The notes: generated by a model not told the origin, from the letters alone. DNA of 64,000 nucleotides from Candidatus Bathyarchaeota archaeon (GCA_963717465.1 OY970340.1:1632001-1696000), one strand, 5' to 3'; shown: positions 13,070-64,000, counted from the stretch's first letter. Translations and numbers: made by a program.

Positions 13070-15469
13070 TCATTCTTTGGAGGATATTGGTTGAACTTCT
13101 TGTTTTGCGTTGATCTTTTGCATGAGGTTTTTTCTGACGTCTTCTTTTAGTGGTCCCATTTTCGAAATTCTATTGTTGAATACTTCAAAGACGTTTATTA
13201 TTTTGTTGTATTCTGGGAGCGTAGTCGAATACGATATTATCCGCATCGGTTCGATATTGTAAGCGCTTAAATCTTTTTTCAACTGGTTGGTATATTCCCG
13301 CAAGGCGTCTTCGCTGAACACGCCGCCATGATCTTCAAACATTATAACACCGTCAGCTCCATAAGCAAAAGCGTGCAACAAATGCTTCAAGCCTATACGT
13401 CCTGTACTGGGAACTCTTATTATTTTGACGTTTGCTGGGTAAGTTGCTCGGCTTTGTCCTGCTAAATCTGCAGCTCCATAGGCGATTTCTTTTTCAAGAA
13501 ACGCTACTAGCTTTGGTGTCATGCTGTAATCGCTGACACTGTGAATTTGAGCCATTAACTGTTCTTCAGTTGAATTATTGAGGTTGATTGCTTCTTTTGG
13601 ACACTTTGGCACGCAGATTCCGCATCCAATGCACGAAATAGAATTGACGGTTATGGCTTTCGATGACTTTTCAATCGCTGAGACTGGGCATACTTTTATG
13701 CATATTTCGCAGCTGTCACATTTCTTCGGATCTATGTATGCCACTTCTGGGGAGATTGAGATTTCACCTTTGCCCAAAAACGTAGCTACTCTTGACGCAA
13801 CTGCCGACGATTCTAAGGTTGTCTCTCTGATATCTTTTGGACTTACAGCGCACCCGGCGATGAATATTCCTTCTCGTTGACTATCAACTGGTTTTAGCTT
13901 GTAGTGCTTTTCTACGAGGAACTCGTCTGATCCAATCTGAATTCCAAGTTTTTTAGCTAATTCCTGAGCACCTGAAGCTGGAGTAATTCCGAGAACTAGC
14001 ACAACTAAATCGAAAACTCCTTCAATGGGGCATCCGACAAGGGTATCCTCTGCTTTTACTAATAAATCGCCGCTCTTTAATGGTAAAATTTCGGCTACAC
14101 GCCCTCTAACAAATTTTACGTTATGCTCTCTGGCTTTAGCGTAAAACTCTTCGTATCCCTTTCCATCAGCTCTTATATCAGTGTAGAAAATCCATGGTTC
14201 AGCGTCTGGCACTACTTTTTGAACCAACATTGCTTGTTTAATTGAAGCCATGCAGCCAATCTTACAGCAGTGCTCCACGCCGCCAAGCTCTTTATTCGTC
14301 ATTCGGCTGCCTACGCAAAGGACAAAAGCAACTTTCTTTGCGACTTTCTTATCTGAAGGCCTTTTCATCTCCTGACCTATAAGTCGTTCAAGCTGCAAGT
14401 TGGTTATTACATCTGGATTTAAGCCGAACTTGTATTCCCCAAATTTCTTTGCATCAACAAGTTCAAAGCCTGTTGAAGAAATTACAGAACCAACATCAAG
14501 TTCAATATTTTCTTCCTTTTGGTTAAAATCAATGGCTTTGCCTTTGCAGAATTTCTCGCAGAGTCTGCAAACTCCTTTTGTTAAATATAGACAATGCTCT
14601 TTATCGATTACATACGTCTTTGGGACTGCTTGCTTAAAAGGTGTATAAATGGCTTTTCGAGTTGACAAATTAGCATCAAATTCGCTTGGTACATTGACTG
14701 GGCAAACCTTTTCGCATTCGCCGCATGCGGTACAATTGGCGGCATTAACAAATCTTGGGCTTTTCTTGATTAAAGCTCGGTAGTTTCCTGGAGATCCCTC
14801 AACGGCTTGTACTTCTGCCATTGGAATAATTTTGATGTTAGGATGTTGCGCAACGCTTACCATTTTTGGCGTCAATATGCATTGTGAGCAGTCCAAGGTT
14901 GGGAAAGTTTTGCTTAGTTGAGCCATGTGTCCGCCTATGCTTGGACTTCGCTCCACTAAGTATACTTGATAACCTTTATCTGCAATCTCTATCGAAGTGG
15001 TAATGCCTGCAATTCCGCCTCCAATGACAAGAGTGTCTTTTTTCACTGGAATTGCCTTGGCAGTTAAGGGTTCCAAGTAGCGAGCTCTCGATACTGCGCT
15101 GCGAATTATGTCGATGGCTTTAGAGGTTGCTTCGTCTTTGTTTCCGTGAACCCAACTGCATTGTTCTCTGATATTTGCCATTTCGAGCAAGTAAGGGTTT
15201 AAACCTGCTGCTTCTACGACACGTCTAAATGTGTCCAGATGCATTCGCGGCGAGCAGGATGCTACAACGATTCTGTTTAATCCGTTTTCCTTAATGCCTT
15301 TTTTGATCATTTCTTGCCCTGGGTCACTGCATACGTATTCGTATTTTTCTACGACTTTTACGCCGTCAAGTTTTGAAACAGCTTCTTTTACCTTGGCAAC
15401 GTCAACTGTGTCGCTTATGTTTCCTCCACAGTGGCAAATATAAACTCCGATCTTTGCTTTTTCAGTCAA
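13070..15469 (-). CDS. hdrA: heterodisulfide reductase subunit A fused to a degenerate MvhD domain
   Basis: [33 protein letters not shown] motif, TFPTLDC, ferredoxin motifs; C-terminal YGAADLAG...YPANVKIIRV...GADGV. Confidence 0.93.
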   Translation of the reverse strand: MTEKAKIGVYICHCGGNISDTVDVAKVKEAVSKLDGVKVVEKYEYVCSDPGQEMIKKGIKENGLNRIVVASCSPRMHLDTFRRVVEAAGLNPYLLEMANIREQCSWVHGNKDEATSKAIDIIRSAVSRARYLEPLTAKAIPVKKDTLVIGGGIAGITTSIEIADKGYQVYLVERSPSIGGHMAQLSKTFPTLDCSQCILTPKMVSVAQHPNIKIIPMAEVQAVEGSPGNYRALIKKSPRFVNAANCTACGECEKVCPVNVPSEFDANLSTRKAIYTPFKQAVPKTYVIDKEHCLYLTKGVCRLCEKFCKGKAIDFNQKEENIELDVGSVISSTGFELVDAKKFGEYKFGLNPDVITNLQLERLIGQEMKRPSDKKVAKKVAFVLCVGSRMTNKELGGVEHCCKIGCMASIKQAMLVQKVVPDAEPWIFYTDIRADGKGYEEFYAKAREHNVKFVRGRVAEILPLKSGDLLVKAEDTLVGCPIEGVFDLVVLVLGITPASGAQELAKKLGIQIGSDEFLVEKHYKLKPVDSQREGIFIAGCAVSPKDIRETTLESSAVASRVATFLGKGEISISPEVAYIDPKKCDSCEICIKVCPVSAIEKSSKAITVNSISCIGCGICVPKCPKEAINLNNSTEEQLMAQIHSVSDYSMTPKLVAFLEKEIAYGAADLAGQSRATYPANVKIIRVPSTGRIGLKHLLHAFAYGADGVIMFEDHGGVFSEDALREYTNQLKKDLSAYNIEPMRIISYSTTLPEYNKIINVFEVFNNRISKMGPLKEDVRKNLMQKINAKQEVQPISSKE

Positions 15470-15484
15470 TTTTCGTTACATCTC

Positions 15485-16372
15485 TTATGCTTTAAGTTTG
15501 TTAACGAGAGTTTGAACTTGGGTTTTATTTTTGTCCAGGCCGATCTCTGCTGGGGTCATACCGAGCGCTAAACCCAAGAGTTGCGTTAGAAAGACTACTG
15601 GTAACTCGTATTTAGTTTTCAACTTTTGATTTATTTCAACTTGTCCGTTATCAAATTGGAGATGACAGAAGGCACATGGTGTGACTACACAATCTGCTCC
15701 AGCACTAAGCATGTTGTCAATCTTTGACCTGGTGAAATCAAGGGCAACATCAATGGCGTCAGATCTCACTCCGCCGCCTGCGCCGCAGCATTGCATTTTA
15801 TCCTTGTAATCAACGCTTTCTGCACCCAATGTTCTAACAAAATCATCGATTATAGTTGGGTTTTCAGCTGAACCGTGTTTTCTCACCGCGCTTGGCTTTA
15901 AAAAGTGGCAACCATAGTGGACTGCAACTTTGATGTTGCTAAGTGGGACTTTTACCTTTTCTTTAATAGCTGAGTAGCCAACATCTTCGTTTAAAACTTC
16001 AATTATGTGTTTTACTTTTGTTGTTCCTTTATATTCTCTATTGACTTCTTTGAAGATATCATTCACCTGATGCTTCAATTCGTCATTTTCCATTAAGAGG
16101 CAGTTAGTCTCCTGAAGTGACCCGTAGCAGCCATTACAGGTAACTGCTATATCCTTATTCATTTGCTCGGCGATAGTAAGGTTTCTTGCACTAATCACAG
16201 CCCATGTTAACATGTCAAAAGAGCCGAAGACTCCTGGAGCAGGGCAGCATGAAGCCCCCTTCATATCCAGTAATTCTATTCCAAAAACTCCAAGTGTTTT
16301 TTTGGTTGCTAATTCAATTCCAGGGTAACGGTTGGGCGCAATACATCCAAGAAAGTAAGCATACTGTTTCAT
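15485..16372 (-). CDS. hdrB: CoB-CoM heterodisulfide reductase subunit B
   Basis: GCIAPNRYPG, SCCPAPG, CNGC, HYGCH, CCGAGGG, CAFC. Confidence 0.95.
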   Translation of the reverse strand: MKQYAYFLGCIAPNRYPGIELATKKTLGVFGIELLDMKGASCCPAPGVFGSFDMLTWAVISARNLTIAEQMNKDIAVTCNGCYGSLQETNCLLMENDELKHQVNDIFKEVNREYKGTTKVKHIIEVLNEDVGYSAIKEKVKVPLSNIKVAVHYGCHFLKPSAVRKHGSAENPTIIDDFVRTLGAESVDYKDKMQCCGAGGGVRSDAIDVALDFTRSKIDNMLSAGADCVVTPCAFCHLQFDNGQVEINQKLKTKYELPVVFLTQLLGLALGMTPAEIGLDKNKTQVQTLVNKLKA

Positions 16373-16950
16373 TTTTTAACCTCTCCCTTAACTGCTTTTT
16401 CTGCAACGAGAACCTTAAATCCTGTTTTTTCAAGTAACTTGTTTATTTCTTTAAGTCCCTCAGGATCACTGAGAGTAGTTGGCGGAACCTCTGATAGTCC
16501 CATGTTTTTTCTAACTGCTTTCATTTCATCATTAATAGGCACGGCATGCCCACTCGCCATGAAAGCTTTGGCGATTTTTCTATGTGATTCTTTTATGTTG
16601 CCATTTTTCACGGCCATGTTTCTGAGAATTCTAACTATGTCAGTAGTGTGAATGCCTCGGGGGCACCTTTCTTGACAGGTATAACAAGTAGTGCATTTCC
16701 ACAAATCATCACTCGAAAGAACTTTATCTTTTAATCCTGTCGAAGTCTCTTCAAAAATTTTTCTAATTCGCCATGAAGTTCGTCTTCCAGAGGGGCAGCC
16801 TCCGACACACCTTCCGCATTGAAGGCATTGTCTAAGTTTTTCTATTTCTTCCTTGTTATAGAATTTTGAACCAGCATCTATAACTTCATTGCGAAAATTA
16901 AATGATGCGTCTTGAATAACTTCTTTCTTTGGAGCCATCCTTATCCCCAT
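16369..16950 (-). CDS. hdrC: CoB-CoM heterodisulfide reductase subunit C
   Basis: CLQCGRCVGGCP and CTTCYTCQERCPRG; overlaps hdrB start. Confidence 0.95.
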   Translation of the reverse strand: MGIRMAPKKEVIQDASFNFRNEVIDAGSKFYNKEEIEKLRQCLQCGRCVGGCPSGRRTSWRIRKIFEETSTGLKDKVLSSDDLWKCTTCYTCQERCPRGIHTTDIVRILRNMAVKNGNIKESHRKIAKAFMASGHAVPINDEMKAVRKNMGLSEVPPTTLSDPEGLKEINKLLEKTGFKVLVAEKAVKGEVKK

Positions 16951-17196
16951 GCTCTTTTCTTAGCCAACTCTACGCTGCTTAGTTTTGAATAAACATTGAC
17001 CCGTGAATTTAAACATTTTTACCTCACCGAATTCATTTAAAATGTTAAAGTCTGCTCAGTTTTATAATGAAAGTTAACTGTTGCATGTACCTTGAGGTGC
17101 ATTATAATGGCAAGCCGATAAGAAATTAACATGACAAGACATAAATAAGCTCAATCGCTTTTTAGTTTCTTAAAAAATAGGAGTGCTACAACTATA

Positions 17197-18222
17197 ATGG
17201 ATTTAAAAGAAAGGTTTCTTGCTTCAACGAAGCGTAAACCAGTTGATAGAGTTCCTTGTGCAAGTCCCCTTCAAACGGCAACAGTAGATTTAATGAATAA
17301 ATGTGGCGCGAGTTGGCCTGAAGCTTTTAGAAATGCAGAGAAAATGGCTACTCTTTCCGCTGCAGCTTACGAAATAGGCGGAATTGAAAGTGTTCGAGTG
17401 CCTTTTGACTTATCCGTCGAGGCAGAAACGTTGGGCTGCAAAATTAAACCAGGCTTGGTCAACGTCCAGCCGCAAACATTAGAAGGCATAATTAATAGTC
17501 CCGATGATGTTGGCAAAGTGAAGGTTCCTGATCCGAAAACAGCTGAACCTATGGCAACAGTCTTAAAAGCAGTAAAGATTCTCAAAGGAAAGTATCCCGA
17601 CAAAGTACCTATTATCGGTGCAGCTTTGGGTCCCATGACGCTAGCCGGACACGTTAATGGTATAGAAAAATTTTTGGTGGCCTTGAGAAAGCAACAGGAT
17701 TTTGCCAGATCAATTCTTGATTTTGCAACGCAAGTTTCAACAACTTATTCGCTTGCGCTAGTTGAAGCTGGCGCTGACGTCATAAGTTTAATAGATCCCT
17801 CAGCAACTGGGGAAATATTAGGGCCAAGGTTCGAAAAAGAGTTCGCTACTCCATACACCAAGAAAGTGGTTGAGCAAATACACAAAGCAGGAGTACCTGT
17901 AATCTTACATATCTGCGGCAAATCTACCATTATTTGGGATTCTATGGTTGAGACTGGATCAGACATGCTCAGCATCAGTGAGCAAGTTGACATGGCTGAA
18001 GCAAAACAAAAAATAGGCAGCAAAGTTGCTCTTGCTGGCAACATTAATCCGATTCAGACTTTGCAGTTTGGGACACCGCAAGACGTGGAGAAAGCAGTCA
18101 AAGAATGCATAGAAAAGGGCGTAGATAACCTTTGCCCAGGTTGCGGATTCACACCGAATACATCACTAGAAAACATGAAGAAAATGACAGATGCGTGCAG
18201 AGCTGTAGGAGCCAAACGATAA
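17197..18222 (+). CDS. mtaA: methylcobamide:CoM methyltransferase (MtaA/MtbA family)
   Basis: URO-D fold; VRVPFD..VEAETLG, Zn motif LHICG...PGCG. Confidence 0.85.
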   Translation: MDLKERFLASTKRKPVDRVPCASPLQTATVDLMNKCGASWPEAFRNAEKMATLSAAAYEIGGIESVRVPFDLSVEAETLGCKIKPGLVNVQPQTLEGIINSPDDVGKVKVPDPKTAEPMATVLKAVKILKGKYPDKVPIIGAALGPMTLAGHVNGIEKFLVALRKQQDFARSILDFATQVSTTYSLALVEAGADVISLIDPSATGEILGPRFEKEFATPYTKKVVEQIHKAGVPVILHICGKSTIIWDSMVETGSDMLSISEQVDMAEAKQKIGSKVALAGNINPIQTLQFGTPQDVEKAVKECIEKGVDNLCPGCGFTPNTSLENMKKMTDACRAVGAKR

Positions 18223-18469
18223 ATTCAAAGGCATGCAGCTTAAACAGCCCTCTCTTTTATTTTAGCGGTATGTAACTGCTCAGAAATGTTTATAATAAAT
18301 TTTCGCAAATTTCGTAATTTTCTAACCCTTTCTCAACATTTTTGCCAGCATGTAGTGTGTATTATTCGTCAATAAACGAAATACATACCTTTCCATGCAC
18401 GTTTAGTGTTTTGGCACTCTATAAGGTAGGTCCGTGAGCGTCGCGCAGCCTTTCGGCAGTGCGCGCTAA

Positions 18470-18660
18470 ATTGCGTCTTGTTAAGTTCAATAGTTGCTCA
18501 AAGAGTTTATTATAACCTTGAAGGATGTATTCAATGACTTCTCCTTTATCATTAAAGACAAGCTCACAGACTTGAACGTCTACATTAAGCATTCTAAAAG
18601 TTTAAGACAATTATCAAAACTATTTTGGAAGATATCTTGAACGATTTGTTTTTCTTCCAT
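18470..18660 (-). pseudogene. frameshifted PAS-domain-like remnant
   Basis: ATG 18660 MEEKQIVQ...; after a shift CELVFNDKGEVIEYILQGYNKLFEQLLNLTR resembles a PAS N-terminus. Confidence 0.35.
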
Positions 18661-18680
18661 AAATCCCAATAATTAATTAT

Positions 18681-18722
18681 TTCTGATTAGGTACTTTATT
18701 AATTCTGATTAGGTATTTTATT
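18681..18722. repeat. 20-bp tandem direct repeat
   Basis: TTCTGATTAGGTACTTTATT (18681) and TTCTGATTAGGTATTTTATT (18703). Confidence 0.8.
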
Positions 18723-19165
18723 TTTTAGGTTTAATCTAATTAACATGACAAAACCACAAGCAGAGATGGCTTGAATTGACCTTGTTTTAGTCCAAGCGAA
18801 TGCAAAAACTGGCAGGAAGAAGAGGTGAAGCATTCCACTTTGGATTAAATGTCAATTCAACCAGCCTCATATTTTTGGATTGGGTTTAGTGCGCACTCCA
18901 AATCAATTGTCTTTTGCGTTATGAAAATATCGTAAGCTGCTTTTACGCATTGATTGGCTGCTTCAAAAATATTTTGATTTGAACTATGATTAAATGGTTC
19001 TGTAGGTATTAATCCCTAAATATGTCTTGGGAGAAATGAGTCTTGAAATCGACATTATTGGATTTTGACCTTTTTGGTTTAAGTCGGTAGGCCTAGCGCT
19101 GCTACAATATATTTAATTAATGTTTACTTAAAGGCTTAAATATCAGTAAAATTTCCAAAGCATTT

Positions 19166-28045: not shown

Positions 28046-29387
28046 ATGATCGGAATGAAGTACAAGGACAAAATAGACCTGTATAGTGAGGAAGGAAAAC
28101 TACTTGAGTCTAATGTACCTCTTGAGGCCATTAGTCCAATTTTAAACCCTGCGATTAAGAAAATAATTCATACATTGATGAGATCCGTCGCTGTTAACTT
28201 AGAAGGCATAGAGAAATCTTTGGCAAACGGAACAGTTGGCGGTGAAGGATGTAAGATTCCTGGAAGAGAACTACAACTCGACATTGTGAAAAATGCCAAT
28301 GTCATTGCAGACAAGGTTTTGGAAAAAGTCAGAGCTAAGAAAGGCGATGATGCTGAAGTTCAAATTCTAGCTGGCGGAAAACAACTCCTAGTTAAATCTC
28401 CAACTCTGAGACTCGAAGCTAGTGCTGAATACACAACATCTTTAACTAACATTGCATCAGCTGTGACGCAAACGATCATTGATGTATTCAACGTATCAAT
28501 GTTCGATGCGGATATGGTTAAAGCAGCTGTTTGGGGCAGGTACCCACAATCAATTAATCTAATGGGCAGTAATCTTGCCTCTGTCCTAGGTGTGCCACAG
28601 GCAAACGAGGGCTTAGGTTACGCTCTAAGAAACATATCCGCGGCTTATGTAGCAATGATATGCAAGAAGAACGCTTTAAACACAGCAGCCTTATCCTCAA
28701 TACTTGAACAGATCAGCAGCGTTCGAAATGGGAGACGCAATCGGCGACTTTGAAAGAATGCAACTTCTCGGACTCGCATTCCAAGGATTAAACGCTAACA
28801 ACCTCGTTTACGACCTTGTTAAGGAAAACGGTAAAACCGGAACAGTCGGCACTGTTATTACCAGCCTCGTAAAACGTGCACTCAAAGACAAAGTTATACG
28901 ACCTCTTGAAAAGAACGAATCAGGTTTTGTTACATATACTACTGACGACATGGCGCTCTGGAACGCATACGCAGGAGCTGGATTATTAGCAGCCACAATG
29001 ATAAGCCAAGGCGCAATGAGAGCTATGCAAGGAGTTTCAGCAGTAGTAGTATATTTCAACGACATGCTCGAACACGAAACAGGATTGCCCTCAGTCGAGT
29101 TCGGCAAATCCATGGGTTCAGGAGTTGAATTCTCATTCTTCAGCCACTCAATATACGGCGGTGGAAGCCCAGTCGTATTCCACGGAAACCACATCGTGAC
29201 AAGACACAGCAAAGGATTCTCCATACCTCCAGTCGCAGCAGCAATCGCACTCGACGCAGGAACAGTTTACTATACACCAGAAAAAGTCGCTGGAATAATT
29301 AGCGAAGTTTTCAGCACAATACCAGAACTAAGAGAGCCAATCGCTCATGTAGCAAAAGCTGCTGCAGAAGTGAAGGCCTCTATATAG
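28046..29387 (+). CDS. mcrB: methyl-coenzyme M reductase beta subunit (+1 frameshift near 28713)
   Basis: [61 protein letters not shown]. Confidence 0.97.
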
Positions 29388-29399
29388 GCGAAAAAATCG

Positions 29400-29847
29400 G
29401 TGCCAAACACACCCCCTCAATTTTCTTTTAAAAATATTTCTGAAAATAACGAAGAAATCGAAATTTTTCCGAATCGTCTATTAAGCCTTGCAACTTTAGA
29501 AAAAATATTAAATAAAATTTCTAAAATTGAAGAAGTTATCTCTGTAACCTTGCAGGGTCAGCGTCTTCCTAAAGAAGAAGCTACTTGCGCTTGTGAAGCT
29601 GAAAACCAAGTTGAGAGCAGAAAGATTCTTGTGCAAAATCAGGAAATTGAAATTCACATCATGACTGGTCGAATAATTCTCGAAGTGCCAAGCCAAGAAA
29701 CTGAAAAAGTTATCAAAAAAATTAAGAAAATATCTGATCAACTGTCTTCCATTTGGCTATAGTATTAGAGTTGGCAAATTCCTTAAAAGAAACGTGTCAC
29801 TAGCTGATTATAAGAGAGAATGGTTTCAAAATATCTCCAAAAAATAA
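29400..29847 (+). CDS. mcrD: MCR operon protein D (+1 frameshift near 29746)
   Basis: IEIFPNRLL...TLEKILN, QGQRLP, GRIILE; shifted tail LPFGYSIRVGKFLK...SLADY; lies between mcrB and mcrC. Confidence 0.9.
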
Positions 29848-29875
29848 TTCGTATCTTTAAGATTCTTAGGAGTCG

Positions 29876-30545
29876 ATGATAAAGTTGCCTGGTGGTTCTT
29901 GTCGCAGAATGGAGAAGCCTTGCATAGGCAAAAAGACACAGTTTATCGATTGCCGAGAGGTAATGGGTTTAGGTTTAGGTGGAGGATTAGCGCAACGTGG
30001 AACTCTCGCTGAAGCGTCTCCTGCAGATGTTATTGTTATAGCTATGTCACCTGGAAGAAGGCATATTACTAAACCCGTTTGCGAAATTACCTCTGCATTA
30101 AGAGAAGCTGGTATCAGTGTGAGTGTTTTGATTTTAGATGCTGGTTCAAGTGTACCACCTGATGCACCTTCCTCAAGACAAGGGTACGGACCAATCTTTG
30201 GTTTGTCTCCAGAAGAATTTGCAAAGAATTTCAAAGCATAAACTTGCAATAATTCATTTGGGAAATGTTAGAGCTCACATTGTTTATAAAGCTCGTGCAA
30301 TTTTGAGAATGGTCAATATTCCTGCGGTTGTTATTTGTCAATGTCCAGTTGATTTTGAGGATTTTGCTGAAGTCGGTGTTAGAACGCGCTTTGTAAAACC
30401 GAATGCGACTGAGGAGCAGACTCTTGGTGAGATTGTTGAAATTGTTACTGACGTGGTAAGGGGTCAAACATGCCCTCGAAGTAAACTCGATGAGATAAGT
30501 GGAAAAGTCAAGTCATCACTAAACTTATTAAGGAAAACAAAATAA
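29876..30545 (+). CDS. mcrC: MCR operon protein C (+1 frameshift near 30224)
   Basis: [54 protein letters not shown]. Confidence 0.95.
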
Positions 30546-30596
30546 TAGTTGAAAAGAAACCATACAATAATTGAGACAAAACGGAGTGTATAGCAT

Positions 30597-31379
30597 TTGG
30601 AAAAATCAGATTATAAGCCTCAATATACCCCTGGCGTCTCCGATGTAGCTAAGAACAGAAGAAACTACATGGACCCAAAGCACAAATTGGAGAAGCTTCG
30701 CTCAATTTCTGACGAATCTCTGATAAGGTTGCTTGGGCATCGCGAGCCTGGAGAAGCCTATAAATCAGTTCACCCACCCCTTGAAGAAATGGGCGAACCT
30801 AAATGCACGATAAGGAAACTTGTTGAACCCACACCTGGAGCCAAAGCTGGTGACAGAATCACATTCATACAATTCACCGATTCTGTGTACTTCTCGCCTT
30901 TGGCACCCTACAGCAGGTGCTGGATGTACATGTCAAGATACAGAGGTGTAGACCCTGGCGCTCTATCAGGAAGATGCCCCCTTGAAATGAGAGAAAGAGA
31001 TTTAGAAGCAGTTTCAAAGGAGCTAATTGAAACAGAAGTTTTCGACCCAGCAAGAACCGCAGTTAGAGGCGCAACAGTACACGGCCACTCTTTGAGACTG
31101 GACGAGAACGGAATGATGTTTGACTTATTAAGACGCTCTGTTTACGACAAGAAGAAGCAAGAAATCACATATGTTAAAGATCAGTTGGGAGTACCGTTAG
31201 ACACGCCAATTGCACTTGGAAAACCGTTACCAGAAGAAGAATTAAGGAAAAGAACAACAATCTTCAGGGCAGACGGAACATCCATACGAAAAGATCCAGA
31301 GCTACTAAAATATATTCAAAGAATTCACACACTAAGAACAATCGCTGGTCATAACCCGGAAAAAGCCAAAGGACTATAA
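30597..31379 (+). CDS. mcrG: methyl-coenzyme M reductase gamma subunit
   Basis: LGHREPGEAYKSVHPPLEEM, GAKAGDR, RGATVHGHSLRLDENGMMFD. Confidence 0.97.
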   Translation: MEKSDYKPQYTPGVSDVAKNRRNYMDPKHKLEKLRSISDESLIRLLGHREPGEAYKSVHPPLEEMGEPKCTIRKLVEPTPGAKAGDRITFIQFTDSVYFSPLAPYSRCWMYMSRYRGVDPGALSGRCPLEMRERDLEAVSKELIETEVFDPARTAVRGATVHGHSLRLDENGMMFDLLRRSVYDKKKQEITYVKDQLGVPLDTPIALGKPLPEEELRKRTTIFRADGTSIRKDPELLKYIQRIHTLRTIAGHNPEKAKGL

Positions 31380-31405
31380 AAAGAGGTTAAAATGAGGTAA
31401 TAATT

Positions 31406-33078
31406 ATGGTTAAGAAAGAAAAAATGTTTTTAGAAGAACTTGAGAAGAAATTCAAGGAAGATCCTACTAAAAAGACTACTACCTACTACCATTTTGGTGG
31501 CTGGAAGCAGTCAAAGAGAAAGCAAGAATTCTACAGAGCTAGCCAAAAGATCGAGAAAGAGAGAGGCATACCGATGTACTCTCCGGATACTTCACTTAGG
31601 TGGTGTACCTGTAGGTCAAAGACTTCTTATGCCCTATAAGATCTCTGGGACAGACGTTTATTGTGAAGGAGACGACTTACATTTCATCAACAACGCAGCC
31701 ATGCAGCAAATGTGGGACGACATAAGAAGGACAGTAATCGTAGGCTTAGATGCCCCGCACAAAGTATTAGAAAGCAGATTAGGCAAAGAAGTAACACCAG
31801 AAACAATAAGCGAATACATGGAAATACTCAACCACACAATGCCTGGAGCAGCAGTAGTTCAAGAACACATGGTTGAAACACACCCCGCACTAGTGTCAGA
31901 TTGCTATGTAAAACTATTCACAGGCAACGATGAGCTTGCAGATGCCATAGACAAAAGATTCGTAATTAACATAAACAAATTATTCCCCAAAGAAAATGCT
32001 GCAGCCCTAAAGAAAGCAATCGGAAACCGCGTTTGGCAAGTAGTCAGAGCACCCTCAATGGTTGGTCGTGTCTGCGACGGTGGAACAATTTCCAGATGGT
32101 CAGCAATGCAAATTTGCATGGCTATGATATGCTCATACAAACTAATGGCAGGAGAAGCAGCCACTGGAGAATTCGCCTATGCATCAAAACACGCCGAATT
32201 AATTGAAATGGGTACAATGACACCTTGGAGAAGACAAAGAGGTCCAAACGAGCCTGGTGGTATTACATTTGGTTATCTAGCTGATATGATCCAATACGAC
32301 AGAGTTCACCCAGATGACCCAGTAAGACAATCCCTTGAAACAATCGCTGCAGGCGCAATGCTATTCGACCAAATATACTTCGGCAGCTACATGTCAGGTG
32401 GTGTAGGATTCACTCAATATGCAACAGCAACCTACACAGACAACATTCTTGACGATATGTGCTATAACATTGCTGATTACGTTAAGAAGAAATATGGCGG
32501 ATTTACAAAGGCAAAAGTTTCCATGGACACTATACTCGACGTTGCAACAGAAGCTACAGAATATGGTCTTGACCAATATGACATGTACCCAACTCTAGCG
32601 GAAACTCACTTCGGAGGCTCACAAAGAACCTCAGTAGTATCTGCCTCAGCAGGAGTAGGTGTCGCTCTCGCTACTGGACGTGCTCAAGCAGGAGTAAACG
32701 GATGGTACCTATCTCAAATACTGCACAAAGAAATAGCCGGCAGACTCTGGATTCTACGGTTACGATGCACAAGACCAAATGGGAGCAGCAAACAGCTTTG
32801 CCTTCCGAGGCGACGAAGGATTGCCAATGGAACTACGAGGACCTAACTATCCAAACTACGCAATGAACGTTGGCCACACCGGTGAATACGCAGGAATAGT
32901 CGCAGCAGCGCATTCAGCTCGAGGAGACGCCTGGTGTTGCAACCCAATAATCAAAGTCGCATTCGCAGACCCAAGCCTCAAATTCGACTTCGTAAACGTC
33001 AGAGCATGCTTCGCAAAAGGCGCCACAAGAGAATTCATGCCTGCTGCAGAACGTACAGCAGTCATACCTCCAAAGTAA
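31406..33078 (+). CDS. mcrA: methyl-coenzyme M reductase alpha subunit (+1 frameshifts near 31589 and 32748)
   Basis: [65 protein letters not shown]. Confidence 0.98.
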
Positions 33079-56374: not shown

Positions 56375-57200
56375 ATGACAAATGAATGGCGTCTTTTAGA
56401 TTCTGATCTTGTTGACCCAATAACTGGCGTCGCCACGGTTGAAGCCGTCGGAATAGCTAGATCAAAAAACTTGGTTCCGAATACAATAATTTTTTGGCGA
56501 CCGAAAACACGTTTTGTTTGTTTAGGTTACTTTCAGTACGTGAAAGATGAAGTTTACCCAGAAATATGCGAAAAACTCGGTGTAAAAATTGCTCGCAGAA
56601 TTCTCGGAGGCGGAATGGGTTACGTGGATCAAAACCAACTTTTGTACGATGTTGTAATGGGTTCAGAATACAAGGTAACTCCAGTCGCTTCTAGCATTGA
56701 ACGAATGTACAAGCACGTTTTAAGCGGAGTAATTCAAGGCTTAAGAGAACTCGGTTTCACAGATGTACTTCTAATGCCTGATTATAACTCTGCTATTTGG
56801 TTAAACGGCAAGAAAGTCTCTGGAAATTGTGCAACCAGCTTAACTGGAGCCCAAATAGTTGGCGGCAGTCTGCTTGTAGATTTCGATTTCGAAATGCTCG
56901 AAAAAGTCAGTAGAAATCCATACAAGAAGTCTCAAGTCAGGCATAACTTCACTTGAAGAAGGTTTAACATGTATTAACCGAGAAAGCAAAAAAAATGTCA
57001 GCTTAAAGAATGTAAAAGTTGCCGTTAAAACTGGCTTTGAAAAAGCTCTGAACATAAAATTGAAGCATGGAGCCCTAATCAAAGAAGAAGAAGATTTAAT
57101 CAATGAATTAGAGCCAAAGTTTTCTTCCAAAGAATGGACTTATCATATGGACATCAAGAGCCAAAAATTGATGCCGTACCCAGAAACTGGAGAGACATAA
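56375..57200 (+). CDS. lplA: lipoate-protein ligase, catalytic domain (+1 frameshift near 56930)
   Basis: WRLLD, LGYFQ, RRILGGG..Y.D, NGKKVSG. Confidence 0.85.
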
Positions 57201-57211
57201 TCTGACCAAAC

Positions 57212-58244
57212 TTGACAGAATTGCAAGAAAAAGCATTCAACGATGAAGCCATATCAAAAAATGAAGCAGACGTAATTTTACATCTTTCAGATGAACGGCA
57301 AATATCAGATTTAATCAAGCTCACAAGAGCCGTGTCTGATAAGCAAAATGGGAAAAGAATTAATTTTTACTATACAGGGAATTATTTTCCTGCATTATCT
57401 GTGACAGGCAGCAATTGTGCGCTTGCGATGTAAACACTGCGAAACCAAGCTCTTGCAGCAATTACCTGCAGCCCCAACGCCGCAAAAACTATGTTGAAAT
57501 GTGCTTAAAACTAAATGAAAAGGGTGCAAAAGGTGTTCTGATCACTGGCGGCTGCTCAAGTAATGGTAAGGTTCCTATCAGTAAATTTCTCGACGCTATA
57601 TCAGAAATTAAGAAGAAGACTAGTCTTATCGTTATAGCGCACACGGGAATTCTTGAAACAAAGGAAGCCAAGGAACTTGTTAATGCAGGATTGGATGGAG
57701 CAGCTGTAGACGTTGTTGGATTGCCTGAAACAATCAACTCCGTTTATTGCGCAGAATTCAAGCCAGAAGATTATGCTAATACTCTTAGAGCTCTTGGAAA
57801 CAGCTAAGATGCCAATAATATCTCCCCATGTTTGTGTAGGGCTCAATTTTGGCAGTCTCAAACATGAATTAGACTCATTAAGCATAATTGCAAAAATTAA
57901 ACCTACAACCGTCGTGATCACCGCTATTTTGCCTCTAAGAGGAACGCCCATGGAAAAAGTAAGAGTAGCAGCCTTTGATGTTGCCAAAGTTGTTATCGCT
58001 GCTAAACTAATGTTCCCCAATATTCCAATAACTCTAGGTTGTGCAAGATCAAAAGGTCCAGATAGAGAACATATAGAGAAACTTGCAATTCACGCAGGAG
58101 TAACTAACGTAGCCGTCCCCTCCGAATCAGCCATCAAAGAAGCAGAATCTATAGGGCTCAAAATTACTAGCTTATGGTGCTTGTTGTGCGGTTCCTCCGC
58201 TTGCTTCTCTTAAACTTGAAAAATGGAGAACTGTTGACGCATGA
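57212..58244 (+). CDS. LipS1-type radical SAM sulfur-insertion enzyme (several frameshifts)
   Basis: SVTGSNCAL/CKHC, LITGG, AHTG, SPHVCVGL, LGCAR, C-terminal ACCA. Confidence 0.8.
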
Positions 58245-59254
58245 CTTCATCGCCAGTAGAAAAAATCCGGTTGTCAATTGGGACTGCAGTGATTTTAGGT
58301 CTTGAAATAGCTTTTATGAATAAGGATAATGCACCTACAACCGCCTACTTGCAGACTTATCATCCTGGCAGATGTGCAGCTAACTGCAAATTCTGTGCGC
58401 AGGCAAGAGATTCCGATGCGAAAGTTGACAAGATCGCCCGTGGATTGTACTTGCCCTACGATGCGGAGTTAGTAATTACTCGACTGAAAAAAGCAACTGA
58501 ACGCAAATTCATCAAAAGAATATGCATACAAACCATGAACTACCCTAAACTCATGGATGAACTACTCTGGCTCATCAAAAGGTTAAGCAGTGAAGTTTCA
58601 GCACCAATATCAGTATCAATTTACTCAATTTCACCCGAGAAAATCAGGCTTATAAAAGAAGCGGGCGCTCAAAAAATGATAATTCCATTGGATGCGGCGA
58701 ACGAAAAAATATTTGATGAAATTAAAGGCGCCAAAACTGCGGGTCCATACAGGTGGAAAAGCCACTTTTCAACCCTTGAAAATGCCCTTCAAATCATGGG
58801 CAAAGGAAACGTTGGAACACATCTAATGGTTGGCTTAGGCGAAACTGAAGAGGAAATAGTTAATTTGCTTGAAAAACTCGAAGAAATGGGCATCTACTGC
58901 GGACTTTTCGCTTTTACTCCCATCCCTGGAACTCAACTGGAAAAAATGGAGTCTCCTTCAATCGAGAGTTATCGCCGAATAAAACTCGCAAACTACTTAA
59001 TTTACAACAATTTAACCGAAGTCAACAAAATACGTTTTAATGAAACGGGAGAAATCGTTGATTTTGGAATAAAACAAGAAGAATTGGACAAAGCCATGGC
59101 GAAAGGTGAACCTTTCCTTACTTCAGGCTGCCCAGATTGCAACAGGCCGTTCGCAAACGAGGCTCCTGAAAAAACAATTTACAATTATCCCAATCTTCCA
59201 AAAAAAGTGGATCTTGGAAAAATCAAGAAACAGATAAAAAACAGTGGGATTTGA
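58241..59254 (+). CDS. LipS2-type radical SAM sulfur-insertion enzyme
   Basis: RLSIGTA, PTTAYL, CAANCKFCAQAR, LFAFTP, TSGCPDCNRP. Confidence 0.85.
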   Translation: MTSSPVEKIRLSIGTAVILGLEIAFMNKDNAPTTAYLQTYHPGRCAANCKFCAQARDSDAKVDKIARGLYLPYDAELVITRLKKATERKFIKRICIQTMNYPKLMDELLWLIKRLSSEVSAPISVSIYSISPEKIRLIKEAGAQKMIIPLDAANEKIFDEIKGAKTAGPYRWKSHFSTLENALQIMGKGNVGTHLMVGLGETEEEIVNLLEKLEEMGIYCGLFAFTPIPGTQLEKMESPSIESYRRIKLANYLIYNNLTEVNKIRFNETGEIVDFGIKQEELDKAMAKGEPFLTSGCPDCNRPFANEAPEKTIYNYPNLPKKVDLGKIKKQIKNSGI

Positions 59255-59258
59255 AGAA

Positions 59259-60204
59259 ATGAGCCAAGAAGATTTTGTTCCAGTGGCTGGAGGTTTTGGA
59301 GTAAAAATCCATGCTCCAAGCGATGGCTGCATTGCATTCTGCAATAGTCCTTTCCCAGCGCACCGAGAATCCAGCGCTTTAGATATTTATCCAGCTGACG
59401 CAAAATTCGGAGATGAAGTTTCTTGTCCAGTAAACGGAATCGTCAAAGAGACACGGAAGTTTTCTTCACCCAATCTTTTTCCTGACAAGCCACCACTTGA
59501 TGAGTACTTGATTCTTATTGAGTCTGCTGATAATCCTGAGGTATACGTAAAAATCATTCATGCTCATCCGAAAGTTAGAAAAGGTGAAAAGGTTAACGTC
59601 GGGGATACTTTGGCGGTGTTAGTGCGCAGCGGTTACTGGGCTTATTCGGTTGACCCTCACATCCATGTGGAACTTCGCAATCCAAAAGATGCAATTAGAG
59701 CTTTAGGGTCCTATCCTCTGGAAGTATTAAACTCTCCAGAAAAAAAATGCGAAATAAGAGAACACGATAGAGAGTGATGTCTTAGGCGTTGTTGTTAAAG
59801 TGGAAAAGCGTTATGCAATTGTTCGCCCAAATCCTGAGAATTGGGTTAACAATCGGCAATTTTTCAGGTTTAGCAGCAAACTGTTGGAAACTGTGTTGGC
59901 ATTCTTGACGGAGGCTTACCATTTATGGGTTACGGAGGCGTTATAGGAACTGAAAAAGGCACGATTGCAGATGCTCCAGTAATCTTAAGTGGGAAAACTA
60001 TCGGAAGAATAACTACAAGCTTGGAGGGGCTGTCTAAATTTGAAACAGTTCCCTTCAAAGTCAAAGCAGGCACCTGTTCGGATGACTTGGGGATTTCTCT
60101 TAAGGTTTTTGTTGGGAAAACAACGAGAAATAAAACTTGTTCCAGCAAAAAACAATCAAATCAACGTTAAAGAGGACGATGTTGTAACAATAAAAAAGGA
60201 TTAA
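59259..60204 (+). CDS. conserved protein with M23-peptidase-like motifs (several frameshifts)
   Basis: AH....ALDIY, CPVNG.V, PHIHVE.R, GILDGGLP. Confidence 0.6.
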
Positions 60205-60256
60205 AATATGAATAAAACAATCAATGCACAACTTTCAGTTATTGGAGTGAATTTGT

Positions 60257-60704
60257 TTGGTTAAAATTGAAGGATTCAGTTTCCCGGAAAAACTCTATTA
60301 TAGCGAAGATCACCTTTGGATAAAACTTAAGGGAAATGAGGCGACAGTTGGCTTTACAAGTCTTGGAGAGGCCTTATGCAAAGAAATTGTGCATGTCGAT
60401 TTGCCTTTTGAAGGTGACGAAAAAAAGCAAGAGTGAAGAAATCGGTTCTTTCGAAAGCATTAAAGCAGTGTTTCGAATCCATGCGCCATTAAGCGGAAAA
60501 GTTACAAAAACAAACAATGACTTGTATCAGCAACCTGATTTGATAAACGAAGCTCCGTATGGAAAAGGTTGGTTATTTGTAATGGCTGCAACCGATCCGA
60601 AAGGTGAATTAAAGAAGCTAATGGATGCAAAAAAAGCAACTGCATACTACAAAGTTATTATCGATGAGGAACGAGCAAAATTCGGCGAGTACGATGAACC
60701 CTGA
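60257..60704 (+). CDS. gcvH: glycine-cleavage H-like lipoyl carrier protein (+1 frameshift near 60431)
   Basis: LYYSEDHLWI, ATVGFT, lipoyl-Lys in ESIKAV, APLSGKV, INEAPYGKGW. Confidence 0.9.
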
Positions 60705-60721
60705 ATACCTAAACTTTAGCT

Positions 60722-61752
60722 ATGGAGTTCTCTGAATTTTTGGAAAAGCAAGAATTAAATAATATTTTAGATAAGGCCCTTACCAGACCAATTACTGGCC
60801 AAGAAGCGCAAAAACTGTTATTGATTGATAAAGTTCAGCTTCCAGAATTATTATCGACATCACGGATTGTTTCAGACAAAAAAACCGACAAAACGCTGAC
60901 TGTTTATCACAAAGCGTTTCAACCCGTATCAATAACAGGACGAACTTGTGCTTTAAACTGTAAACATTGCAGTCAACATTATTTAGAGCACATGATTCCT
61001 GCAAGTAATCCTGAAAAACTGCTTACAAATCTGCAAGAATCTTAAGGCAAATCACGCGCCAGGTGTTCTTTTAAGTGGAGGTAGCAGAAAAGATGGAACC
61101 GTTCCATTAGACGAATTTGCGCATACAATAAGTTTGATCAAGAAAGAAACAGGCTTACTAATTTCTGCTCACACAGGTCCAATAAATTATGAAAATGCCA
61201 AAATCCTAGTTGAAGCCGGATTAGATATTGCTTTGCTTGATGTTGTAGGTTCAGCAGAAACCACAAAAAGCGTTTACGGCGTCAGTATAACTCCGGAGGA
61301 TTACCAAAAAACTTTAATGCTCTAAATGCTGCTGGTATCCCAAATATTTCTCCTCATATCTGTGTTGGGCTTCATTTTGGGAAACTTCTTGGAGAAGCAA
61401 AAGCTTTAGAGTTTAGTTTCACATGCCAAAGTGTCTACAATAGCCATAGTGGTGCTAATTCCAACAAAGGAAACGGCTATGGCTGAAGTTGATCCTTCTT
61501 CACCTGAGGACATAGCCAAAGTCATTGCAATCGCCAACTTGATGTTTCCAAAAACGCCTGTTTCGCTTGGTTGTGTGCGGCCTGGGAAAACTTTTCGTGC
61601 AAAGATTGATGAATTGGCAATCAAAGCTGGCATAGGAAAATTGGCGATTCCAACTGGAAATTCGCTTGAAGATTGCCCGAAGCGAAGGACTTAAAATTAA
61701 ATCTTTTGAGGATGTAATGTGCTGTTCAGTTGATGAATCTCAAATGAAATGA
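60722..61752 (+). CDS. second LipS1-type radical SAM enzyme (several frameshifts)
   Basis: SITGRTCALNCKHC, LLSGG, SAHTG, SPHICVGL, LGCVRP, MCCS. Confidence 0.8.
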
Positions 61753-61869
61753 GTCTCTGCAACATTCTGATTTGAAATAGAGGAGTAGTGCCATCTTAAA
61801 CTAACTAAAAATTAAATATTTGGCTAATCAACCATTATAAAGCCTTAAAATCTGTTGAGTGTGTAATGC

Positions 61870-62926
61870 TTGGATAAATGGAGATTTATTGATTTAGACA
61901 CTACTGATCTTCCTTCTGTTCACGCTATAGAAGAAGCTATAGCTGAAGAAAAAATCGGAAATACACTATTACTATGGCGAGTAAACAAACCCGCTTTAAC
62001 GCATAGGCTATTTTCAGAACGTTTATGAGGAAATTGATGTTGAAAAAGCAAAAGAACTTGGCGTCCCATTTATAAGACGCATGGGCGGAGGCGGAACAGG
62101 TTATCTTACGCCAACTGTTTTAGCATATTCAATAATAGTCAGCGAAAAAAGCAATGTTATGCCTAAAAATGTTGAAGAAACATACGGTGTCATATGTAAC
62201 GGGGTGACGCTTGGTCTTAAGGAATTAGGGCTTGATGCAGTTCACGTGCCAATAAATGATGTTTTAATTGGCGGGAAAAAATTCTCTGGAAGTTCTCAGC
62301 ATAGAAGCTATGGAATGATTATCCAGCATGGATTCATAACTACAGAATTAGACCTTCCCACATTGGCCAAGTTGATTAAAGCTCCTAAAGAAAAGCTTCA
62401 GGATAAAGGCATAACCAAAATAGAAGATAGGATAACTTGGATTAACCGGGAAATTCAAAAAGCTGGAAGAGAACCGTTAAGTTTAGAGCAGATAAAGAAA
62501 GCGATTAGAACAGGATTTGAAAAAGCGCTTAAAGTCACTTTCCAGGATAGCAAACTTACGAAGCAGGAATTGGAAGCTGCAAAGAATTTTAAAGAAAGAT
62601 TTGAACTTGAAACATGGAACATCAATCCTAGACTATTCAAACGAGTCAACGCAGCATCAATTATTAAAGCACCTAAAGGCGTTATCAGAGTAAACGCGTA
62701 CGTTGCCAACGGTAAGATACTGGAGATAATGATAACCGGTGACTACATGATGCATCCTGTTGAAGCCATATCATCTCTTGAAGCTATGCTTACAGGAGCT
62801 AAAACTGATGAGCAAACAATACGAAAAATAGTGAATGAATTTTACGCTAAAGAGACAGTAATTACTCCTGGGGCTTCTCCGGATGATTTTGTAAAAGCAA
62901 TAATGAAGGCAAAGAAACCTTCCTGA
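61870..62926 (+). CDS. lplA: lipoate-protein ligase with C-terminal accessory domain (frameshifted 5' part)
   Basis: KWRFID, IGYFQ, RRMGGGGT, NDVLIGGKKFSGS, KAPKGVIRV...ITGDY. Confidence 0.85.
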
Positions 62927-63037
62927 ATTTTAAGAAGAACTTTAAAAATGATCATGCCTTTTATAAAAAAACTTTTAGAAGATACCTTAAAGACCTTTTT
63001 ACATAAAACTGTTAATTGGATGGGAGAAGCAACATGA

Positions 63038-64000
63038 ATGAGAAACCCACGAATAGGCGTTTATATTTGTCACTGTGGCTTGAACATTGCTGCCACAGTT
63101 GATGTTAAATCAGTTGCAGAATATGCAAAGAATCTCCCTAATGTTGTTGTATCCAAAGATTACAAGTATACGTGTTCTGACCCTGGCCAGGAAATGATAA
63201 AGAAAGATATCAAAGAGCAAAAGCTTAACAGAATTATTGTTGCAGCTTGCTCTCCAAGGATGCATGAGCCTACTTATCGAAAGCTTTTGGAAGAATCAGG
63301 ATTAAACCCGTACTTGTTTGAAATGGTCAATATCCGAGAACAAGTTTCTTGGGTTCACATGAAGGATCCTGAAAAAGCCACTGAAAAAGCTAAAGACTTA
63401 ATCAGAATGGCAGTTGCTAAAGCTGCCTTATTGCAGCCTTTAGAAGAACAAGAAGTTCCTGTATTAAAATCGGTACTTATAATCGGCGGCGGTATTGCTG
63501 GTATTCAAGCAGCCCTTGATTTAGCTGATCAAGATTACAAAGTTACCTTAGTGGAAAAGAAGCCAACCCTCGGAGGTCATATGGCTCAGCTTGACAAGAC
63601 TTTCCCGACAATGGACTGCTCAATCTGTATTTTCGGTCCTAAAATGGTTGACGTCTACAAACACCCAAACGTTACACTTCTAGTTAACAGTGAAGTGCAA
63701 GATATCTCTGGTGCAGCGGGTAACTTCCATGCAAAAGTCTTGAAGAAAGCAAGATATGTTGACGAGAAGAAATGTGTCGGTTGCGGCGTATGCGCAACAA
63801 AATGTCCAATTAAGACTCCTAACGAGTTCGACAAGAATCTTGGTATGCGCAAAGCAATCTACATCCCATTCCCGCAAGGAGTTCCAGCTAAATACACGAT
63901 TGATAAAGAACACTGCTTGTTCTTCACTAAAGGCGTCTGTAAAGTTTGCGAGAAAATGTGTGAAGCCAAAGCAATCGACTATACTCAAGAAGACCAAGTT
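63038..64000 (+). CDS. hdrA: second heterodisulfide reductase subunit A (runs off the window end)
   Basis: [66 protein letters not shown]; absent from the ORF track because it has no stop. Confidence 0.93.

Follow-up and report, generated by a model that had tools for sequence, protein, structure and literature searches.

At the end of a 64,000-nucleotide stretch of the genome of Candidatus Bathyarchaeota archaeon (GCA_963717465.1, OY970340.1) lies a cluster of seven lipoate-assembly genes that runs directly into hdrA, the gene for subunit A of heterodisulfide reductase (Hdr). The whole stretch (G000:C1:1632001-1696000, where G000 is the host genome) is here called the window, and positions are counted from its first nucleotide unless they are given as coordinates of G000 or of another locus. 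The region studied extends from 56375 to 64000 and is on the + strand throughout. The host genome is a single contig of 3.05 Mb with a completeness score of 88%, and the names of its homologues together with its CdvABC genes place it in the Bathyarchaeia. Family scans gave, from 56375 to the window end, the order lplA, lipS1, lipS2, M23-like, gcvH, lipS1, lplA, and hdrA, all on one strand, as a preliminary description of the sequence had read it:

56375..57200, + strand: lplA1, a short lipoate/octanoate-protein ligase or transferase paralogue with the catalytic domain only (PF21948, E = 1.4e-23)
57212..58213, + strand: lipS1a, a radical-SAM LipS1-type lipoyl synthase subunit in three open reading frame (ORF) pieces (NF053742, E = 2.5e-23 and 1.7e-23)
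58241..59254, + strand: lipS2, a LipS2-type lipoyl synthase subunit, an intact ORF of 337 amino acids (aa) (NF053743, 317.4 bits against a cut-off of 270)
59259..60204, + strand: X, a DUF8155, M23-like gene (weak PF01551 match, E = 3.5e-5; LytM/M23 fold on a close homologue)
60257..60704, + strand: gcvH-like gene for a predicted lipoyl carrier (PF01597, E = 6.5e-20)
60722..61752, + strand: lipS1b, a second LipS1 paralogue (NF053742 matches on ORF pieces)
about 61870..62926, + strand: lplA2, a full-length Lpl(AB)-type ligase with a C-terminal LplB domain (PF21948, E = 8e-25; PF10437, E = 1.8e-9)
63038..64000, continuing to about 65006 beyond the window, + strand: hdrA', the 5' half of a second, long methanogen-type HdrA (NF040770, E = 9e-154)

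The gene list of that description stands, but in the assembly lipS2 is the only one of the seven lipoate genes with an uninterrupted open reading frame; the other six are broken. The fragmented LipS1 copies of the window score 83 + 83.5 and 47 + 60 bits against NF053742 (cut-off, 230), while their orthologues in L025, another Bathyarchaeia genome, score 256 (LipS1b) and 225 (LipS1a, just under the cut-off). The L025 orthologues of LipS2 and GcvH reach 311.9 bits (cut-off, 270) and 117.2 bits for the GcvH subfamily (cut-off, 117), and lplA2 scores 64.7 in the window and 63.4 in L025 against the LplB family NF053749 (cut-off, 65). The lipoyl-lysine K72 is invariant in the GcvH alignment, where the window protein reads E-S-I-K-A.

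Past the end of the window, the rest of hdrA' is followed by mvhD', a gene for an FrhB-like Fe-S protein, and HydB/AsrA-like and HydG/AsrB-like genes, and downstream of the last of these lie hdrC, hdrB, a second hdrA, mvhD, vhuG, and vhuA. HdrA, HdrB, HdrC, MvhD, and the small and large hydrogenase subunits are encoded together at 13311-19001 of the 19-kb locus L008. The window holds the first 321 residues of the HdrA2-like hdrA' product; the local HdrA genes encode about 670 to 800 aa, with HdrA2 or methanogen HdrA as the best match, and the mvhD genes after both of these hdrA genes keep the conserved cysteines. The scores of the Mvh-Hdr subunits are under the cut-offs of the methanogen equivalogs (259 versus 345 for HdrB), so orthology to the enzyme acting on CoM-S-S-CoB, the heterodisulfide of coenzymes M (CoM) and B (CoB), is not established. 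The preliminary description had named dihydrolipoamide dehydrogenase, hdrBC, and mvhD as genes to look for downstream; hdrC, hdrB, and mvhD were found, and no dihydrolipoamide dehydrogenase gene lies near the cluster. The best dihydrolipoyl-dehydrogenase-like gene genome-wide is full-length, far away, and scores 363 bits against a cut-off of 408.8.

The hdrA' product and its paralogue 6 kb downstream are 78% identical in amino acids overall. The first ~1 kb of the two genes is 88% identical in nucleotides (window 63011-64000 against G000 1,701,973-1,702,953), whereas the 3' halves are far more diverged, a pattern suggestive of a recent event, either a partial duplication or a gene conversion.

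A DNA-level search in 30 relatives matched the hdrA part only, and synteny was therefore compared at the protein level. The LipS2 family is near-universal in the order (38/41 genomes). Within it, the window LipS2 belongs to a separate subclade (homologues at 60% to 91% identity, the next at 53%) that occurs in 5 of the 301 genomes of the family, 2 of these being among the 88 other members of the genus. Four other Bathyarchaeia genomes (L025, L026, L027, and L028) hold the cluster genes intact, and the first three share an identical seven-gene order with products of 262 to 276 aa (LplA1), 345 aa (LipS1a), 342 to 359 aa (LipS2), 312 to 326 aa (X), 149 to 151 aa (GcvH), 337 to 344 aa (LipS1b), and 354 to 356 aa (LplA2). 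In these three genomes lplA2 is followed by a gene for a protein of 226 to 232 aa (unk230) and then by hdrA, hdrC, hdrB, and mvhD, with vhuG also present in L027. A metagenome scan with the X family added ten further loci of the same cluster type, in which the order recurs (L056 to L065). The three with enough flanking DNA all carry Hdr genes: hdrA-hdrC-hdrB comes after the cluster in L057, and hdrB-hdrA-mvhD-FeS-HydB-HydG lies ahead of it in L061 and L065. The remaining seven contigs are 3.3 to 7.4 kb long, end in or at the cluster, and are outside the adjacency count.

Hdr/MvhD genes thus adjoin the cluster in 7 of the 8 loci with usable flanks (the window's own locus, L025, L026, L027, L057, L061, and L065, but not L028), and the association of lipoate and GcvH genes with Hdr proposed for the window holds beyond it. 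Three layouts occur: cluster, unk230, and hdrA-hdrC-hdrB-mvhD; hdrB-hdrA-mvhD-FeS-HydB-HydG and then the cluster; and, in the host, the cluster with both modules downstream. The DNA upstream of the L025 cluster is homologous to the 1.124- to 1.128-Mb region of the host's own genome and not to the window, so that the cluster and the Hdr genes stay together while other neighbors vary. As these are related loci, perhaps from five lineages, this conserved but rearranged synteny is suggestive of a cluster-Hdr association rather than proof of one. Other cluster types in the order (L021 and L022) also interleave gcvH/lipoate genes with hdrBC/hdrA.

The host genome has further lipoate genes. A second cluster (L010; G000 736.6-742.4 kb) contains a LipT-like GGR gene, lplA (about 530 aa in relatives), lipS1, a divergent lipS2 (198 bits), an OsmC-like gene, and gcvH. 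This type of cluster has no hdr neighbor in the host, is flanked by hdrA/hdrC/hdrB in the relative G029, and is interleaved in G019 with two hdrBC pairs, an HdrD-like gene, GlcD, and three hdrA genes. A housekeeping-type lipS2 (346 bits) at L009 (G000 2,612,143-2,616,523) adjoins a second methanogenesis-marker-like set, comprising marker 5, marker 15, and a marker-6-like protein of 328 aa.

The host is a rare mcr-bearing member of the Bathyarchaeia. Among 41 genomes searched (24 others of the same genus and 16 of the same order), mcrA of methyl-coenzyme M reductase (MCR) was found in the host only and is a lineage oddity; ComE (sulfopyruvate decarboxylase, an enzyme of CoM synthesis) was likewise found in the host alone among 8 genomes. 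According to the preliminary description, the lipoyl carrier would pass electrons to or from HdrA and so recycle CoM-S-S-CoB for the adjacent MCR, making up for an MvhD domain devoid of cysteines. The setting favors this: the cluster is 23 kb from mcrBDCGA and directly follows CoM-biosynthesis genes (cysteate synthase and ComDE), and the HdrA encoded at 13070-15469 (- strand), beside hdrB and hdrC, does have a fused MvhD-like tail in which all conserved cysteines are replaced, as in the HdrA of L022. The cysteine-less domain is therefore real, but there is no need for the cluster to complement it, as the hdrA adjoining the cluster has its own Cys-bearing MvhD and the hdrACB genes on the MCR side, at 13 to 17 kb, already form a complete set. 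The upstream neighbors of the cluster, moreover, are not conserved, and the same operon and Hdr unit occur in relatives without the methanogenic genes: mcrA and ComE were each found in 0 of the 4 other cluster-bearing genomes. This distribution links the cluster to Hdr and not to MCR or CoM-S-S-CoB. It largely refutes a role in CoM-S-S-CoB recycling, which we consider very unlikely.

The only mcr operon of the genome (mcrBDCGA, window 28046-33078) is itself split, with mcrB in two ORFs and mcrA in at least three pieces; the family matches of mcrC (also split) and mcrD are partial. The present assembly gives no ground for calling the operon intact.

The usual destinations of lipoate appear to be missing from the host. 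GcvP (PF02347) and GcvT (PF01571) gave 0 matches each in the 3.05-Mb, 88% complete genome, and no lipoyl-E2 protein was found in it, the only match to the Biotin_lipoyl domain being a gcvH. One E2-like gene (L048:6687-7637; G000 2,444,686-2,445,636) encodes 316 aa with the 2-oxoacid dehydrogenase acyltransferase catalytic domain only; this orphan has no lipoyl domain and no E1/E3 neighbors and lies between unrelated genes. The glycine-cleavage P/T genes, remarked on as missing from the window, were thus not found in the genome either, nor was a lipoyl-E2 for a 2-oxoacid dehydrogenase. GcvH, LplA, and LipS1/LipS2 are the standard archaeal lipoylation set in the available text of Tanabe 2023 (PMC10332631), and the cluster could on that ground be taken for an ordinary supply of lipoate to glycine cleavage or 2-oxoacid dehydrogenases. 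With GcvP and GcvT at 0 matches, an E2-like gene that has neither a lipoyl domain nor E1/E3 neighbors, and no other lipoyl-domain protein, we regard such a supply as extremely unlikely. The preliminary description would have stood refuted had the cluster been standard in mcr-lacking relatives and served glycine cleavage or oxoacid dehydrogenases; it does occur in such relatives, but rarely, and service to those enzymes is contradicted by the missing partners.

The broken reading frames bear on whether the cluster works at all. The window DNA was compared, by dynamic programming that allows for frameshifts, with intact orthologous proteins (from L025 and L027, and P0131, a close homologue, for X). 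Between 56375 and 64000, 15 one-base indels split six of the seven lipoate genes, 14 being insertions and 1 a deletion. By gene, the numbers of one-base insertions/deletions, their positions, and the identities to the orthologues are as follows:

lplA1: 1/0 (near 56927); 68% to 69% identity to the L025 and L027 orthologues over 261 to 275 codons
lipS1a: 4/0 (near 57422, 57492, 57793, and 58172); 60% to 66% identity over 344 codons; CxxxCxxC retained, no in-frame stop once the frame is corrected
lipS2: 0/0
X: 4/0 (near 59763, 59848, 59882, and 60111); 78% identity to P0131 over 312 codons
gcvH: 1/0 (near 60431); 78% to 80% identity to the cluster orthologues; lysine of the E-S/T-I-K-A motif retained
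lipS1b: 3/1 (extra bases at 61022, 61412, and about 61665; missing base at 61318); 75% to 80% identity over 335 to 341 codons; CxxxCxxC retained
lplA2: 1/0 (near 62002); 74% identity over about 355 codons
total: 14/1

A further one-base insertion in hdrA' is located at 64106, just outside the window. Translation past every shift stays 60% to 80% identical to the orthologue, with no loss of the radical-SAM cysteines, the lipoyl-lysine, the lysine motif of the ligase, or the His/Asp residues of X. Over about 2,095 aligned codons there is a single in-frame stop, the TAA that occupies aligned codon 4 of lplA2 (61864-61866) and probably precedes the true start. Divergence is not raised either: against an outgroup copy, X of the window has 74% identity and its intact sister 75%.

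Similar lesions occur elsewhere in the genome. There are three one-base insertions in the hdrA gene at 0.80 Mb, one in the lipS2 gene at 0.74 Mb, and two in the lplA gene at 0.738 Mb. The GGR-like gene has two one-base insertions, one two-base insertion, and one two-base deletion. In the hdrA gene at 2.29 Mb there is one insertion of one base and one of two bases; a two-base deletion at its aligned codon 4 is doubtful. In addition, mtnA is split, and leuA looks truncated or split. As a profile of ORF coverage along the genome did not separate error-rich regions, overlapping same-strand ORF junctions were counted by frame instead: genome-wide there are 440 +1-type and 326 +2-type junctions, against 16 and 30, respectively, in 177 kb of relatives' DNA. 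The density of the errors is patchy: about 1 to 2 per kb at the mcr and lipoate loci and at some hdr loci, but none noticed at 13 to 26 kb and 38 to 56 kb of the window. Long homopolymers were rejected as the cause, the contexts of the 15 indels not being of that kind. An alternative genetic code or programmed frameshifting was likewise rejected, since what breaks the genes is a change of frame, each time at an unrelated sequence, and not a stop codon that recurs.

These frameshifts could mean that the cluster is a truly decaying and functionless pseudogene array, redundant with the intact lipS1, lipS2, lplA, and gcvH copies elsewhere in the genome. The 15 indels in 7.6 kb are several-fold denser than in the preceding about 18 kb, where none were seen, and this local excess leaves real decay some weight, as do the TAA in lplA2 and the missing 230-aa gene, which relatives have after lplA2 and the host lacks at this position. 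A spectrum in which 14 of the 15 lesions are +1 insertions, however, is unlike that of natural mutation. Together with the lack of any definite nonsense codon and of extra divergence, and with every catalytic motif in place, this argues for assembly errors, the more so because the same insertion-biased pattern breaks the only mcrA as well as mcrB, mtnA, leuA, and other hdr genes. Completeness, too, is only 88% although the genome is a single contig. The frameshifts are most likely assembly errors, so that the genes are probably intact in the organism, and decay of the cluster is improbable. Since the mcr operon, like many other genes, is probably split by errors of this kind, the sequence as given is no basis for inferring gene loss.

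Gene X belongs to the Pfam 38.1 families DUF8155 and DUF8155_C and is represented by 38 sequence clusters in a search of 5.8 billion proteins. Its score against Pfam M23 is below gathering (24 to 28 bits versus 28.7), but the model of P0131 (pLDDT, 91.4) has in the N-terminal domain a LytM/M23 fold (against 6smk: Z, 12.3; root mean square deviation, 2.5 A; 117 residues aligned), and Foldseek gave it a probability of 1.0 to LytM and lysostaphin. With the zinc metallopeptidases of this type (EnpA, 6smk; LytM, 2b0p) X shares the fold of the N-terminal domain (Z, 10 to 12) and the invariant His/Asp/His-x-His residues: H35, D42, H101, H134, and H136 are invariant in 35 X sequences and are present in the window copy. 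Unlike these enzymes, X is archaeal, shows no signal of a cell wall role, carries the C-terminal DUF8155_C, and is tied genomically to Lpl/LipS; its peptidase activity is a prediction. The beta-rich C-terminal domain had no clear structural match (Z below 5).

Among 80 metagenomic loci with a relative of X, LplA was found in 30, LipS1 in 25, and LipS2 in 19, in several gene orders. At 10 loci of distant relatives (below 45% identity) that have 5 kb or more of DNA to either side, Lpl/LipS genes are within 5 kb in 7. As such relatives adjoin Lpl/LipS and not Hdr, X is, by its gene neighborhoods, a companion of lipoate assembly in general. It is one that seems to have gone unremarked: no mention of M23 together with LipS1/LipS2 was found in the literature (supplements aside), and the available text of Tanabe 2023 (PMC10332631), again without its supplements, makes no mention of M23, peptidase, or amidase. 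At a guess, X could be an amidase with an octanoyl or lipoyl amide as its substrate.

The lipoyl acceptor could also be sought among the other GcvH-like proteins. The host has nine GcvH-like genes, whereas 22 of 24 relatives in the genus have one; the cluster-bearing genomes have 2 to 6. Six of the host paralogues (motif E-S-R/I-K-Y-T-G-P) are in corrinoid cassettes with genes for a B12-binding-domain protein, an about 420-aa protein without a Pfam family, an SCP2-like protein, and a TrmB-like regulator (G000 at about 85-90, 1123-1128, 1358-1361, 1373-1376, 1507-1515, and 2823-2826 kb; also L025:729-7811). The available text of the published paper on Bathyarchaeia methyltransferases, supplements aside, makes no mention of GcvH. 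The cluster might accordingly be a second lipoylation machine for these expanded paralogues, perhaps in methyl-transfer chemistry, with Hdr neighbors by descent; the expansion itself, the cassettes, and the occurrence of DUF8155 with Lpl/LipS but without Hdr in distant lineages all fit this. It accounts less well for the distinct GcvH that the cluster itself encodes (30% identical to the cassette type), for the persistence of the Hdr adjacency through three rearrangements, and for the housekeeping-type lipS1, lipS2, and lplA already present elsewhere in the genome. On balance we think it unlikely, though it retains appreciable weight.

Several known systems resemble the cluster, and our statements about them refer to the available portions of the papers cited. 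The ligase/LipS1/LipS2 pathway of lipoylation is established in Thermococcus kodakarensis and in sulfur oxidizers (PMC10332631), and in the latter LbpA is viewed as the lipoyl partner of Hdr (Cao et al. 2018, PMC6067878). The sHdr-LbpA system and the cluster described here both have a GcvH-like lipoate-binding protein with its own ligase and LipS1/LipS2 beside Hdr-family genes, and neither has glycine-cleavage partners (PMC6067878, PMC10332631). Whereas sHdr has a short HdrA encoded in hdrC1B1AHC2B2, the cluster is accompanied by a long methanogen-type HdrA, MvhD, and Vhu hydrogenase; LplA and LipS1 are doubled, and the DUF8155/M23-like gene is added. No DsrE/TusA-type match was obtained among the scanned ORFs of the L008 locus, and tblastn detected no GGR/LipT-like gene in the cluster region; the host does have a LipT-like gene in the separate cluster at 0.737 Mb. 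With its long HdrA, the MvhD and Vhu hydrogenase genes that follow, and no LipT-like gene in the cluster, the system is not of the sHdr type, and the likeness to the Hdr of sulfur oxidizers drawn in the preliminary description does not extend that far.

LipS1 and LipS2 of T. kodakarensis, annotated as biotin-synthase-like radical-SAM proteins, reportedly act jointly in place of LipA and are said to serve the glycine cleavage system. In comparison, two LipS1 paralogues accompany one LipS2 here, and there are no P/T proteins. The closest precedent is in the Culexarchaeia, where gcvH is encoded with HdrA2B2C2/HdrB-hydrogenase (Ehe) genes and its product has been proposed to carry the disulfide for Hdr (Kohtz et al. 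2022, PMC9723716). That organism, too, is a non-methanogenic TACK archaeon without CoM/CoB synthesis that has GcvH beside Hdr and is the subject of the same lipoyl-disulfide hypothesis, but its gcvH is alone in a membrane-hydrogenase cluster, while here there is a full seven-gene maturation operon with a soluble Mvh/Hdr-type partner (PMC9723716). The idea of a lipoyl carrier as an Hdr substrate is therefore already published for the Culexarchaeia. New are the dedicated seven-gene operon, the doubled LplA and LipS1, the long HdrA-MvhD-Vhu partner, and the occurrence in Bathyarchaeia.

From these observations we infer, with about even confidence for and against, that a conserved Bathyarchaeia operon matures a GcvH-like lipoyl carrier that would serve the neighboring Hdr as a dithiol/disulfide and is not an accessory of MCR. 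The role of the carrier is suggested by the lack of a P/T or lipoyl-E2 partner and by the conserved neighbors, which are Hdr modules with an HdrB disulfide reductase. The operon would be a self-contained accessory unit of a few Bathyarchaeia that makes one dedicated lipoyl carrier, with a GcvH-like acceptor, LplA1 and the Lpl(AB)-type LplA2, LipS2 with two LipS1 proteins, and the LytM/M23-like DUF8155 protein bearing a putative Zn site. A ligase or transferase would put the C8 chain on the lysine of the GcvH-like protein, and LipS2 with LipS1 would insert two sulfurs. Lipoyl-GcvH could then be a protein-bound dithiol/disulfide reduced or oxidized at the HdrB site in place of CoM-S-S-CoB, in whichever direction the electrons flow.

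Several points weigh against this proposal. In L028 the cluster genes form two divergent operons with no hdr gene within 10 kb, and Hdr genes accompany distant DUF8155 homologues in 0 of the 10 loci that extend 5 kb or more to either side. Adjacency in related genomes may be inherited rather than selected, eight loci being perhaps five lineages. About six of the GcvH-like proteins, those of the corrinoid cassettes, could be what the cluster matures, and the distant dihydrolipoyl-dehydrogenase-like gene could recycle the carrier without Hdr. The redox potential of lipoamide is about -290 mV, which makes it a poorer high-potential acceptor than CoM-S-S-CoB. The local excess of indels counts on the same side.

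A bolder extension, possible but doubtful in our view, is that in Bathyarchaeia lacking CoM the lipoylated GcvH-like protein would be the physiological disulfide of flavin-based bifurcating Mvh/Hdr complexes and DUF8155 a missing enzyme of lipoate assembly. As a LytM-like hydrolase it might, for instance, provide the ligases with their substrate by freeing or trimming an octanoyl/lipoyl amide. DUF8155, a named but uncharacterized family, is in any case placed in the context of lipoate assembly and may bear on the source of octanoyl groups in archaea. Many non-methanogenic archaea, including Bathyarchaeia, have several Hdr/Mvh sets and no CoM/CoB synthesis. A portable operon that stays with Hdr through rearrangements offers a concrete, testable candidate for the substrate of their Hdr. 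If the bolder extension is true, a lipoyl carrier would answer what Hdr reduces in non-methanogenic archaea.

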